DNA from: a virus
Lineage: Duplodnaviria; Caudoviricetes
Direction: 5' to 3' (one strand)
DNA length: 64,000 bases
IMG/VR virus record: IMGVR_UViG_2744054895_000001
Coordinates: 1-64,000 of that record
Made by a program: the position numbers and the translations under genes. Below are positions 52,803-64,000 of this stretch, one piece after another. Within the stretch, counting starts at the first letter, position 1; each line of letters begins with the position of its first letter. The notes below the pieces were generated by a model. It searched no databases and was not told the DNA's origin. It worked only from the letters and a program-made list of their open reading frames with translations.

Positions 52803-53100
52803 CAGAGGCTGTTACCTCTCCGGTTTCCCGGAGCGGGCTGGTCATTTCTGCCAGCCTCTCGCATTCTCATGCGAGTTCGGACTCTATCTTCACCCCAGAG
52901 GGGTGTCCCGTACATAGTCTCTGGACCTTCCCGTCGGTTTCCCAGGCGGGCTCGGCTGCTGATTTTCCCTACCCTCGGACTTCTCAAGCCGTCGCGCTCA
53001 GGCTTTCGCCCCACGCTGTGGCGCCGAGGTCTAACAGGACGTTCCAGCAATTCTCGGGATTTTCACTCGCTACTTACGCAGCGAGGGCCCAGTCAAGTTG
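52803..53100 (-). ncRNA. Group I intron (298 nt, no homing endonuclease) in the tail tube gene
   Basis: Exon-terminal U with P1 GCCU/GGGC; P AAUUGCUGGAA, Q AAUCAGCAG, R CAGAGACUA, S AAGAUAGAGUC; terminal G; removal restores KMP|GQSDF. Confidence 0.88.
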
Positions 53101-53322
53101 AGGCATTTTCTGAGTGGTCGTGTTCATGCCGCCGGCCCTGTATGCGATGACGTCAGTCGTCACGGAAAGGCCGGAAACCGACATGAAGCCGAGCTTTGGA
53201 TAGGCAGAGGACAGCTTGCCGACCTGGCTGATCTGGACGTGGAACTTGAACGAGCGAAGGGGGTCCGTCTGTCGCGAGGCCAGGCTCTGGCTTTGCGAGA
53301 CGGTCTTGAGGGTGGATGCCAT
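53101..53322 (-). CDS. Tail tube protein (gp19-like), exon 1
   Basis: DPLRSFKF.V..GF..VSGL...YR.GG.N....KMP. Confidence 0.85.
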
Positions 53323-61821: not shown

Positions 61822-62175
61822 TCAGTGCCAGACCAGGCCCTTCTCCTCCAGGTGGTTCGCGACGAACGCCGGCACCCGGTACGGAACACCGACCTCGAAG
61901 GTGAAGTAGTTGCCCTGGCCGATGACGACGTCGGTGAGGTTGGCGTTCACGCGGATCTCTCGCGGAGCCTCCTCGACGACGACCGGCTGCTCCTCGACCT
62001 CGGGCTTGGGGTTCTCGACCAGGTCGACGACGACGTCCGACTTCTCCGACTCCGCGACGATCGTGGCCGTCGCCATGGACTTCGCGCGCTCCTTGGCCTC
62101 GGCGTCACGCGCCTGCGCGAGCTTCTCCGCCTGGCGGCCGGTGAGGTCTCCGGCGGGCTTGCGGGCAGTCGTCAT
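61822..62175 (-). CDS. Hypothetical (capsid-associated) protein
   Basis: 117-aa ORF after the capsid gene, AGGAG RBS. Confidence 0.65.
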   Translation of the reverse strand: MTTARKPAGDLTGRQAEKLAQARDAEAKERAKSMATATIVAESEKSDVVVDLVENPKPEVEEQPVVVEEAPREIRVNANLTDVVIGQGNYFTFEVGVPYRVPAFVANHLEEKGLVWH

Positions 62176-62215
62176 GTGGTTCTCCTACTCAGGGAAGTTT
62201 TGTGAGGTTCCCACA

Positions 62216-62240
62216 GGCAGGCTCCGAGATGGAGCCTGCC
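62216..62240 (-). terminator. Hairpin downstream of the major capsid gene
   Basis: ggcaggctcc/ggagcctgcc perfect stem. Confidence 0.55.
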
Positions 62241-62285
62241 CGTAGAAGGTGAACGCGAAGGATGAAATTCGCATTCGTGAACGTT

Positions 62286-63129
62286 CTAGTTCGTCTCGGC
62301 GATGACGACCGAAGCGTCGGTGATCAAGCCGAGCCCGAAGATCGAATACCAGCTCAGCAGGTGTTCACGACCGAAGTCCTGGACGCCGCCGTCCCTCAAC
62401 TCGACCGGCAGGGAGATCGCATGACCGAAGGCATTGTCACCAATGCAAATACTCTGGTAGACGTCGGCAGGGGTCGCCCCGTTGCCGTTTCCGATCTTCT
62501 TGGTTTGGGTGGTCTCGATGAAGATCACGTCATCGATCCTGCCGATCTCGCCGAGGCTGAAGGCCCCCGGCTGCGCGTACTTCGAGGACTCGATCCAGGT
62601 CGGGTCCTCACGCAGCCAGCGCGATTGATGCGGATGCACGAAACACACGTAAACATCGCCCAATCGCGGGATGTTTCGGGTCGCGAGGGTCTCGACCATG
62701 TCCTTGACCAGGGCGGAGGTGAACCGGTGGTTGCCGGTCAGGCCGGCGCGGTTCGGGGCCGGGGCGCCCTTGTCGTAGGGGGAGATGCGGGTAATCGCGT
62801 TACCCGTGGTGGCGAACTTGTCGTAGCCGTAGAGCACGGAGGTGGCCTGGAGGAGCGTGTCCCGCGCCTGCTCGTCAAGGTACTTCGCCATGTTCCGCCC
62901 CAGGAGGCGAGAGCCGGACGCGAGCACGTCATCGAAGGACGAGTTGAGCAGGAGCTCGGAGACGGCGATGGCGTAGCCGTGCTCACTGACAGTAATCGAG
63001 AACTGACTGGCCGTCAGGGCATGGGTTTCCATGCGGACACCTTCGACGAGCTGCGAGGCGTCGCCGAGGTTGTCGTAACGCATGAAGTGGATCACGAGGC
63101 CGGGGCTGACCCCCAGCTCAGTCTTCTTG
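62286..63129 (-). CDS. Major capsid protein (N4-gp56-like), exon 2
   Basis: KKTELGVSPG..FMRY..L.EG..EHG..HP.Q...LR.D..GEIG..V.FIET..DFGR. Confidence 0.88.
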
Positions 63130-63417
63130 CAGCTCTGTTACCTCTCCCCTCAGGGAGCGGGCTGGTCATTTCTGCCAGCCTCTGCATCTTTCCCATTGAT
63201 GCAGGCCAGACTATATCTTCATCTCCAGTTCCAGTGGGCCGAAGCACCTAGCCACTGGGCCTGTTGGAGATGCCACCCGTGTAGTCGTTACGGAGTCCCA
63301 GGTGTTGGGTTCCCTCGGTATTCCCCGTGGTGACGAATGAGTGCTACGAGGAGGAGGGGTTCACCGATACAGGGCGGTTTTCACTGACAGGTCGCCCTGT
63401 CAGGCGGCCAATATCAA
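63130..63417 (-). ncRNA. Group I intron (288 nt, no homing endonuclease) in the major capsid gene
   Basis: P1 GCGGU/GCCGC; P AUCGGUGAA, Q AAUACCGAG, R GUAACGACUA, S AAGAUAUAGUC; P3 CCGCCC/GGGUGG; terminal G; removal restores FAV-KKTE. Confidence 0.9.
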
Positions 63418-63572
63418 ACCGCGAACTGCTCGAAGCGCAGGATCGGCATCGACTGGAACAGAATTTCCTTCGACCAGAGTTCCTGGATGGCCGGGGAAAG
63501 CTGCGAGTTCGCGCCGGCGTAGTTGGTCGGAGACGCCGACAGACGCGGCGTACCGGTGATGGCAGAAGCCAT
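63418..63572 (-). CDS. Major capsid protein, exon 1
   Basis: MASAITGTP...IQELWSKEILFQSMPILRFEQFA; joined product 332 aa. Confidence 0.85.
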
Positions 63573-63600
63573 GCTTTACATCCCTTACTGATGCGGCGGG

Positions 63601-64000
63601 TTAACCGAACATACCCTGACGCGCCGCGTTGCCAGCGGCCGGCAGGAGCTGGCCGCGGAGCTTGGCGTACTCGGACATGGGCATGTTCTTGATGTCGCCA
63701 GCGGAATACTGGCGGTAGCCGGCGTTCGTGTCGGCGGGACCGACGCCGTAACCGGTGGGAGCGGTGCCGCGCATCGAGGCCCGCGCAGCGACCTGGGTCT
63801 GCTGGATCTGGGCGACGATGGCAGCGCTCTTCTGCTTCATCAGCTCGACGCTGGCGCGCAGCTCGTCCTCGGTGTTGCCCTGGACGAGGTCGACCAGCTC
63901 GGGGGCGATGTCGTCGGCGGCCTGCGAGAGCAGTTCACCGCGGACGTTCTGGAGGCGCGTGTACTCCTGCTCGCGCGAGAACAACTCGCGGTCGGCCTCG
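63601..64000 (-). CDS. Capsid scaffolding protein (5' end outside the window)
   Basis: Helical protein; I..M.M.EYAK.R..LL C-terminus; directly upstream of the capsid gene. Confidence 0.65.
   Translation of the reverse strand, partial: EADRELFSREQEYTRLQNVRGELLSQAADDIAPELVDLVQGNTEDELRASVELMKQKSAAIVAQIQQTQVAARASMRGTAPTGYGVGPADTNAGYRQYSAGDIKNMPMSEYAKLRGQLLPAAGNAARQGMFG

Follow-up and report, generated by a model that had tools for sequence, protein, structure and literature searches.

Group I introns of classical phages lie mostly in nucleotide-metabolism or replication genes, and homing endonucleases are frequent in them. Introns in phage capsid genes, ORF-less introns in virion genes of actinophages (BAKA) and multi-intron major capsid protein (MCP) genes of crAss-like phages are nonetheless already published. 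The accessible text of Pope et al. (2013, PMC3706429) reports RT-PCR proof of splicing for the introns of the mycobacteriophages LittleE and BAKA, to which N-terminal sequencing across the junction was added for LittleE; the same text gives the BAKA intron as 265 bp without an endonuclease and cites a capsid intron in the lactococcal phage Tuc2009. In crAss-like Delta and Zeta phages, MCP genes with several group I introns were found via the endonuclease domains that these introns encode (accessible parts of Yutin et al. 2021, PMC7886860); these phages of Bacteroidetes parallel the multi-intron relatives described below, whereas the latter introns are ORF-less and belong to actinobacterial/soil phages. 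An earlier note on the DNA studied here had held that phage introns usually occur in DNA-metabolism, lysin or terminase genes and often carry homing endonucleases; a correction to this is that capsid introns have already been described in the accessible sources, for LittleE, Tuc2009 and crAss-like phages. A search of the full-text literature, with most subscription journals outside it, returned no published description of the Streptomyces-prophage intron reported here or of an ORF-less lineage specialised on capsid genes, and the lineage-wide pattern of capsid introns may be new.

The window, that is the whole stretch of 64,000 nucleotides that was analysed, comes from a provirus whose source record has 94,789 bp and is rated 96% complete. 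In this Streptomyces-type prophage the major capsid gene is split by a small, protein-free group I intron, and the split is a genuine feature of the gene. Its parts are the following.

Positions 63418 to 63572, minus strand: capsid exon 1, from ATG 63572, 155 nt, 51 codons plus 2 nt, ending ..GCG GU.
Positions 63130 to 63417, minus strand: group I intron in the capsid gene, 288 nt, without an ORF; first nucleotide U63417, last nucleotide G63130.
Positions 63414 to 63416, minus strand: in-frame TGA, intron nucleotides 2-4, which would halt ribosomes arriving from exon 1.
Positions 62286 to 63129, minus strand: capsid exon 2, 841 coding nt plus the stop, starting C AAG AAG.

In the ORF list the exon-1 frame gives 52 residues (MASAITG...ILRFEQFAV) from ATG 63572 and then meets TGA 63416-63414, and the exon-2 frame is open from 63137 to the stop 62288-62286 and encodes the rest of the capsid protein. 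Excision of 63417-63130 joins 155+841 coding nt at GCG GT|C AAG into 332 aa with no internal stop. The earlier note had described just this arrangement, with the frame stopping after codon 52, resuming about 290 nt later, and yielding a continuous 332-aa protein once 63130-63417 is removed, and our reconstruction agrees with it. Judged from the window alone, a cut at GTT|..C|AAG would give the same protein; since the introns of four same-site relatives (L034, L035, L056 and L058) begin with C, only the ..GGU|...G|CAAG junction remains, and the coordinates given in that note are thus exact.

The identity of the gene is given by both exons. The profile phrog_1357 ('major head protein') matches exon 2 with an E of 1.7e-52 (aa 8-279 on profile 63-344) and exon 1 with an E of 0.012 (aa 16-51 on profile 20-55), so that the two exons are collinear on it and none of it is missing beyond the positions encoded at the junction. 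This match of the whole protein, with its two collinear exons, places the host gene in the N4-gp56 / phrog_1357 family. The Pfam profile PF25209 (Phage_capsid_4) reaches 27.9 bits on exon 2, barely over its 27-bit cut-off, and of 6542 candidates from a database search with exon 2, 5341 proteins reached E<=0.001, the named ones being called 'N4-gp56 family major capsid protein'. The junction ..FEQFAV|KKTELG.. is contiguous, as ..(F/Y)EQF(A/M)(V/I)KKTELG.., in all 13 of 13 full-length homologues (325-341 aa; alignment A1); this is the alignment to intron-less capsids that the earlier note had proposed as a check. Exon 1 is 90% identical to the N-terminus of the intron-less homologue P0010, exon-1 aa 52 abuts exon-2 aa 1 in 16 of 20 loci from species-representative genomes, and in Streptomyces phage LuckySocke (66% identical) the capsid gene is an unbroken CDS of 1023 nt. 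A megablast of 62000-64000 against the phage collection gave no match.

The two open frames might also be expressed with no RNA splicing at all, by a translational bypass or as two polypeptides. Beyond the existence of the two ORFs nothing speaks for this, and we give it a practically negligible probability: the 288-nt gap contains stops in all frames, the first start in the exon-2 frame, GTG 63095, comes 11 codons into conserved sequence, and the insert has the structure of a group I intron. To our knowledge, a gap of 288 nt with stops far exceeds the known ribosomal hops. An intein, a group II intron and translational bypass were ruled out by the stops in all frames together with the group I core.

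The intron was analysed by a covariance-model search and by a helix map made by hand and checked by script. The Rfam model RF00028 matches the insert locally with 44.4 bits and an E of 5.5e-10 (full-length model, 1-253, over 63425-63182; E 1.6e-11 in the whole 94,789-bp record), a score below the 50-bit gathering score of the family, so that by the Rfam cut-off the capsid intron is not a member and we class it by structure and homology instead. For the same reason the default gathering scan missed it and reported only a second intron, at 52858-53110; an E-value threshold was needed to see the one in the capsid gene. The helices and joining elements, all on the minus strand, are the following.

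Positions 63404 to 63422: P1, exon GCGGU (63422-63418) with guide GCCGC (63408-63404), U63418.G63408 at the cleavage site.
Positions 63411-63409 and 63129-63127: possible P10, P1-loop UUG with exon-2 CAA, 3 bp.
Positions 63384 to 63403: P2, CUGACAGG-GCGA-CCUGUCAG, a GNRA-capped stem.
Positions 63377-63372 and 63278-63273: P3, CCGCCC/GGGUGG, enclosing P4, P5, P6-P6a and the P7 5' strand.
Positions 63367-63362 and 63320-63315: P4, UCGGUG/UACCGA.
Positions 63359-63356 and 63326-63323: P5, CCCC/GGGG, with a loop of ~29 nt.
Positions 63314-63306 and 63300-63292: P6-P6a, located by hand and script.
Positions 63286-63282 (5' strand) and 63213-63209 (3' strand): P7, GACUA/UAGUC, pseudoknotted with P3.
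Positions 63272-63265 and 63227-63220: P8, by hand and script.
Positions 63258-63252 and 63237-63231: P8a, by hand and script.
Positions 63219-63214: J8/7, AAGAUA.
The 'S element' of the capsid intron: AAGAUAUAGUC.
Positions 63204-63198 and 63188-63182: P9, by hand and script.
Positions 63180-63175 and 63165-63160: P9.1, by hand and script.
Positions 63157-63153 and 63148-63144: P9.2, by hand and script.
The 3' tail of the capsid intron, ending at G63130: GUAACAGAGCUG.

The insert thus has the features of a group I intron: exon U63418 lies opposite guide G63408 as a U.G pair and is followed by four Watson-Crick pairs, the core P3-P4-P5-P6-P7-P8 is present with its P3/P7 pseudoknot and J8/7, and the intron ends in the omega-G at G63130. 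A terminal G is found in 37 of 37 confidently mapped relatives; the finder required a G, so that only the four same-site relatives are independent in this respect. Between P3' and P8 a P7.1/P7.2 insert is lacking, and the ~29-nt loop L5 shows no evident structure. The unconstrained minimum free energy fold has a z of -2.95 (1 of 100 shuffles was as good) and recovers P1, P2, P8, P9 and P9.1; it pairs P5/P6 otherwise than the group I fold and was left unused for the core. Four ORFs of 51-121 aa overlap the intron, mostly antisense or running into the exons, and Pfam matched none of them; an endonuclease ORF, the mark of a mobile intron, is absent from the 288 nt. The earlier note had called the insert a group I intron that lacks an ORF and named the U.G pair of P1, P3, the GACUA/UAGUC P7, the S element and the terminal G, all of which we located by sequence and coordinates; the class assignment and the lack of an ORF hold as well, and the covariance-model search that it proposed gave the match reported above.

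The structure was then evaluated on an alignment (A3) of 16 intron copies from capsid genes (14 distinct rows), in which 12 of the 16, closely related copies inserted after nt 139, predominate. P9.2 was left out of the count on account of alignment indels, and 63 pairs were scored. Of 879 cells 96.8% are paired, against 30-42% with slid partners; changes on both sides that compensate each other occur in 24 of 63 pairs, and none of 500 shuffles reached any of five covariation measures. The compensatory pairs fall in P2 (5/8, with 100% of its cells paired), P8a (7/7), P9 (6/7), P9.1 (2/6), P8 (2/8), P3 (1/6) and P7 (1/5), the last being one swap of A-U to G-C. P4, P5 and P6 do not vary among the 14 distinct rows and are uninformative either way. 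At position 3 of P3 the window has G.U and 13 of the 14 distinct rows have an A.A mismatch.

These data also bear on the idea that the insert is a dead intron, or some other insertion that is no longer spliced, and that the capsid gene is a pseudogene in a decaying prophage. The element is indeed a provirus, and two relatives have imperfect capsid matches: that of Streptomyces diastatochromogenes (L014:3001-3839) runs in two frames that meet near aa 188-191, suggesting a frameshift or an assembly error, and that of L005:3001-3759 ends at aa 253. Decay is nevertheless very unlikely, given that the two exons have kept their open frames, with 75-90% identity to intact homologues, that all core helices are kept with compensatory changes, that an intron of the same lineage sits at the same site in a locus whose capsid gene is only 70% identical (L032), and that the record is 96% complete. 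The intron of L014 carries, besides, a tandem expansion of 14-15 nt within its P8a loop.

A blastn search of the capsid intron against 50,697 phage records gave 30 matches, 30/30 of them in Cluster J mycobacteriophages, with 73-74% identity over intron nt 89-254 (~160 nt) and E values of 3e-13 to 3e-14. They fall in the LittleE capsid intron, which has an endonuclease ORF and whose gene is annotated as 'containing a putative group I intron', and in the intron of the minor tail gene of BAKA/Optimus type, for which the annotation reads 'contains possible group 1 intron'. A homologous ribozyme core with a common layout of guide and helices (alignment A4) assigns the capsid intron to this Cluster J lineage. 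Among the closest counterparts is the BAKA/Optimus intron, which is likewise ORF-less, of similar length (265 bp vs 288 nt) and 74% identical in the core, shares the guide (GGCCGCC), the 5' exon end (GGCGGU), the P9 stem and the helix order, and resides in an actinobacterial phage (~110 kb), in one of its late virion genes. It differs in its minor tail gene, in its Mycobacterium host, in L5, which is short in BAKA and a loop of ~29 nt in the window, and in its detection, the RF00028 model at E<=1e-3 recovering the window copy and not BAKA. LittleE, an actinophage, resembles the window in having a group I-like intron in its major capsid gene, with 73% identity over nt 89-254 of the window intron; the LittleE intron is, however, ~820 bp long with an endonuclease ORF on the opposite strand (accessible text of PMC3706429), and it lies at another insertion site in an unrelated capsid family.

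The introns of T4 td, nrdB and nrdD, of the SPO1 DNA polymerase gene and of Twort orf142 belong to the same ribozyme class, and the window intron has in common with such classical introns a stop codon in frame shortly after the 5' splice site (a general point made in the accessible text of PMC3984707). It is unlike them in its host gene and in its lack of an endonuclease, the classical set being mostly found in nucleotide-metabolism or replication genes and often equipped with homing endonucleases (in part from the accessible text of PMC3706429). The blastn search against the 50,697 phage records revealed no sequence similarity to classical phage introns. RF00028 at E<=1e-3 matched neither the BAKA intron (L213, 28186-28450) nor a site-139 Streptomyces intron (L003:2702-2983); because BAKA is proven by RT-PCR and is also missed, the sub-threshold score of the window copy is no evidence against it. 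The curated RF00028 model and threshold under-detect the lineage related to the Cluster J introns.

Four lines of evidence, namely the intron-less homologues, the match to the covariance model, the covariation and the homology to the spliced introns of Cluster J, thus support the group I reading that the earlier note had given. On structure and homology the capsid insert is very probably a functional group I intron, and splicing of the window copy, and splicing without a protein, is what they predict. We propose that the late transcript would carry the capsid intron, that ribosomes entering from exon 1 would stop at the TGA at intron nt 2-4, and that the intron RNA would fold into a P1-P9.2 ribozyme. 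In this ribozyme the guide GCCGC would pair with the exon end ..GCGGU and guanosine would attack after U63418; the freed exon 1 would then attack after the terminal G63130, with the short UUG/CAA P10 assisting, and ligation of ..GCG GU to C AAG.. would produce an mRNA that encodes the capsid protein of 332 aa. A point against this mechanism is that P1 and P10 are short, with just 5 and 3 bp. When P1 pairing was searched for freely, the mean was 4.08 bp for cognate exons vs 3.12 bp for exons of the other class, a weak discriminator, and we preferred a table of guide class against exon class.

The shortness of P1 and P10, together with the large unstructured L5 loop, may alternatively be taken to mean that excision in vivo requires a protein cofactor from the host or the phage, or takes place under certain conditions only, and that the intron acts as a checkpoint on capsid synthesis and not as a neutral passenger. 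The accessible text of PMC3984707 states that splicing in vivo can need or gain from protein factors and that such introns are perhaps not neutral. We consider this reading improbable, since nothing in the data points to a cofactor, the capsid intron holds no maturase or endonuclease ORF, and of the HNH, HNH_3, GIY-YIG and RVT_1 domains, the four families searched, none occurs in the provirus record.

A second, related intron is present in the window, in the gene of a T4-gp19-like tail-tube protein.

Positions 52803 to 53100, minus strand: second, related group I intron, 298 nt, RF00028 68.5 bits.
Positions 53322-53101 and 52802-52440, minus strand: exons of the tail-tube gene, T4-gp19-like, just downstream of a 516-aa sheath gene.
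Predicted junction peptide of the tail-tube protein: ..MPGQSDFSPVTLSK.

The two halves of the tail-tube gene match the Pfam profile PF06841 at positions 1-46 and 60-133, and their join, ..TTQKMP|GQSDFSPVTLSKG, gives 194 aa with no stop. The exon ends in ..AUGCCU, the guide is GGGC and P10 is UGACU/GGUCA. An identical run of 30 nt, AGAGGCUGGCAGAAAUGACCAGCCCGCUCC, from the P9.1 region occurs in both introns (63183-63154 and 52859-52830, minus strand), while their 5' halves differ; the common run points to recombination or gene conversion among introns of the same genome.

Relatives of the capsid intron were retrieved with a 22-mer and a 17-mer of the core and with the capsid protein, and comprise at least the loci listed. 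The closest ones by capsid protein (95-98% identical; 4 genome and 8 IMG/VR loci) have the same intron after nt 139 of the gene, 16 nt upstream of the site in the window, with the junction ..CUC CGG U|..G|UC GAG; other relatives have it after nt 113 (..AUC CU|), and the window and L032 after nt 155. A nhmmer profile of alignment A3 scores 258 bits on the capsid intron and gives at least 226 matches in 212 sources (1.38 Mb), often several per locus. Junctions were mapped for 113 non-redundant full-length copies, 41 of which lie in N4-gp56-type capsid genes, 37 of these confidently. Rows with a junction score <64 (L078 nt129, L042 nt131 and nt178, L115 nt404) were excluded from the site counts, the tree and the guide table. 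The confident sites are nine (nt 100, 113, 139, 155, 208, 296, 717, 741 and 758), and mapping by exon HSPs adds about five (387, 414, about 701, 903 and 922-934), for a total of about 14.

A capsid gene may hold up to five introns. Within single capsid genes, RF00028 finds five in L066:5716-7903, four in L050:1719-4075 with one more by nhmmer, three in L062:4422-6375 with one more by nhmmer, and three in L047:2362-3933. In these multi-intron genes of related uncultured phages the exons between introns are as short as ~35-40 nt.

Nearly all sites follow NGGU or NCCU. The confident ones follow NGGU except nt 113 (UCCU), and GCCU precedes the sites at 922-934 as well as the tail-tube intron of the window. 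The guide corresponds to the exon: GGGGAC is found in 8/8 introns after ..UCCU and GGCC in 28/29 introns after ..GGU, the 29th having GCCGC, so that guide class tracks exon class in 36 of 37 relatives. As a separate observation, the site that each lineage leaves unoccupied is mismatched to the common guide. At the upstream site (nt 139, about 63434) the window reads CUGCGCU vs CUCCGGU in the site-139 phages, and at the downstream site (nt 155) the site-139 phages read GCAGU vs GCGGU in the window; the intron-less L013 has both CGGU targets. The mismatch may reflect selection against a competing 5' splice site, or chance.

In a tree of 37 intron cores the site-139 introns form one clade (support 93/80), for which inheritance at the same site is a sufficient explanation. 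The labels of sites 100, 113, 155 and 208 are no more clustered on the tree than shuffled labels, and introns from sites 100, 155 and 208 fall together in one clade with 100/100 support; elsewhere the resolution of the tree is poor, 4 of its 34 branches being starred. Outside the N4-gp56-type capsid family we sampled 37 further loci, selected through an intronic 17-mer and not through similarity of the capsid; the preference for long flanking frames favours well-assembled loci. A 'major head protein' PHROG is found on at least one flank in 33 of these 37, and the flanks represent at least five families (phrog_10, 2263, 752, 29 and 1357; secondary 617, 212 and 15928). In the other four loci (L114, L126, L181 and L074) the longest flanking open frames had no PHROG match.

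We tentatively suggest, as a possibility that we hold with some doubt, that the intron belongs to a large ORF-less lineage specialised on major capsid genes, which would move by guide-directed reverse splicing into the most abundant late mRNAs and not by endonuclease homing. Transposition by reverse splicing fits because many NGGU sites share a guide, the site labels are intermixed and the provirus record has no endonuclease or reverse transcriptase of the four families searched; the pattern is no proof of an RNA route, because any insertion must fit the guide to be spliced out. An RNA-level route, with transcript abundance as the cause of the capsid bias, could account for the distribution. 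According to the accessible text of PMC3984707, reverse splicing needs only 4-6 nt of P1 complementarity and lacks direct experimental proof, and as a route for the spread of group I introns it has circumstantial support only, from rDNA.

The intron has consequences for annotation. The earlier note expected standard gene callers to truncate the capsid gene, and this is what the databases contain: the closest proteins, 87-96% identical, have 268-308 aa and start at or inside the intron. The nearest public entries (P0001-P0004) have 287, 308, 268 and 291 aa instead of about 332, and at the N-terminus they are either cut short or include translated intron. NCBI and JGI entries thus mis-call the most abundant virion protein of this prophage group (268-308 aa vs ~332 aa), and because the curated Rfam threshold misses the intron and the capsid entries are mis-called, there are effects on the proteomics of these Streptomyces elements and on their classification by capsid.

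Furthermore, the window copy ties a Streptomyces prophage to the experimentally proven introns of the Cluster J mycobacteriophages and leads to a lineage whose members have settled at many NGGU sites in capsid genes. If the proposed specialisation is true, the bias towards capsid genes would have a parallel in nuclear group I introns, which are confined to rDNA. Many recent changes of site in a protein-coding gene, in culturable hosts, would make this a phage system in which spread by reverse splicing is testable.
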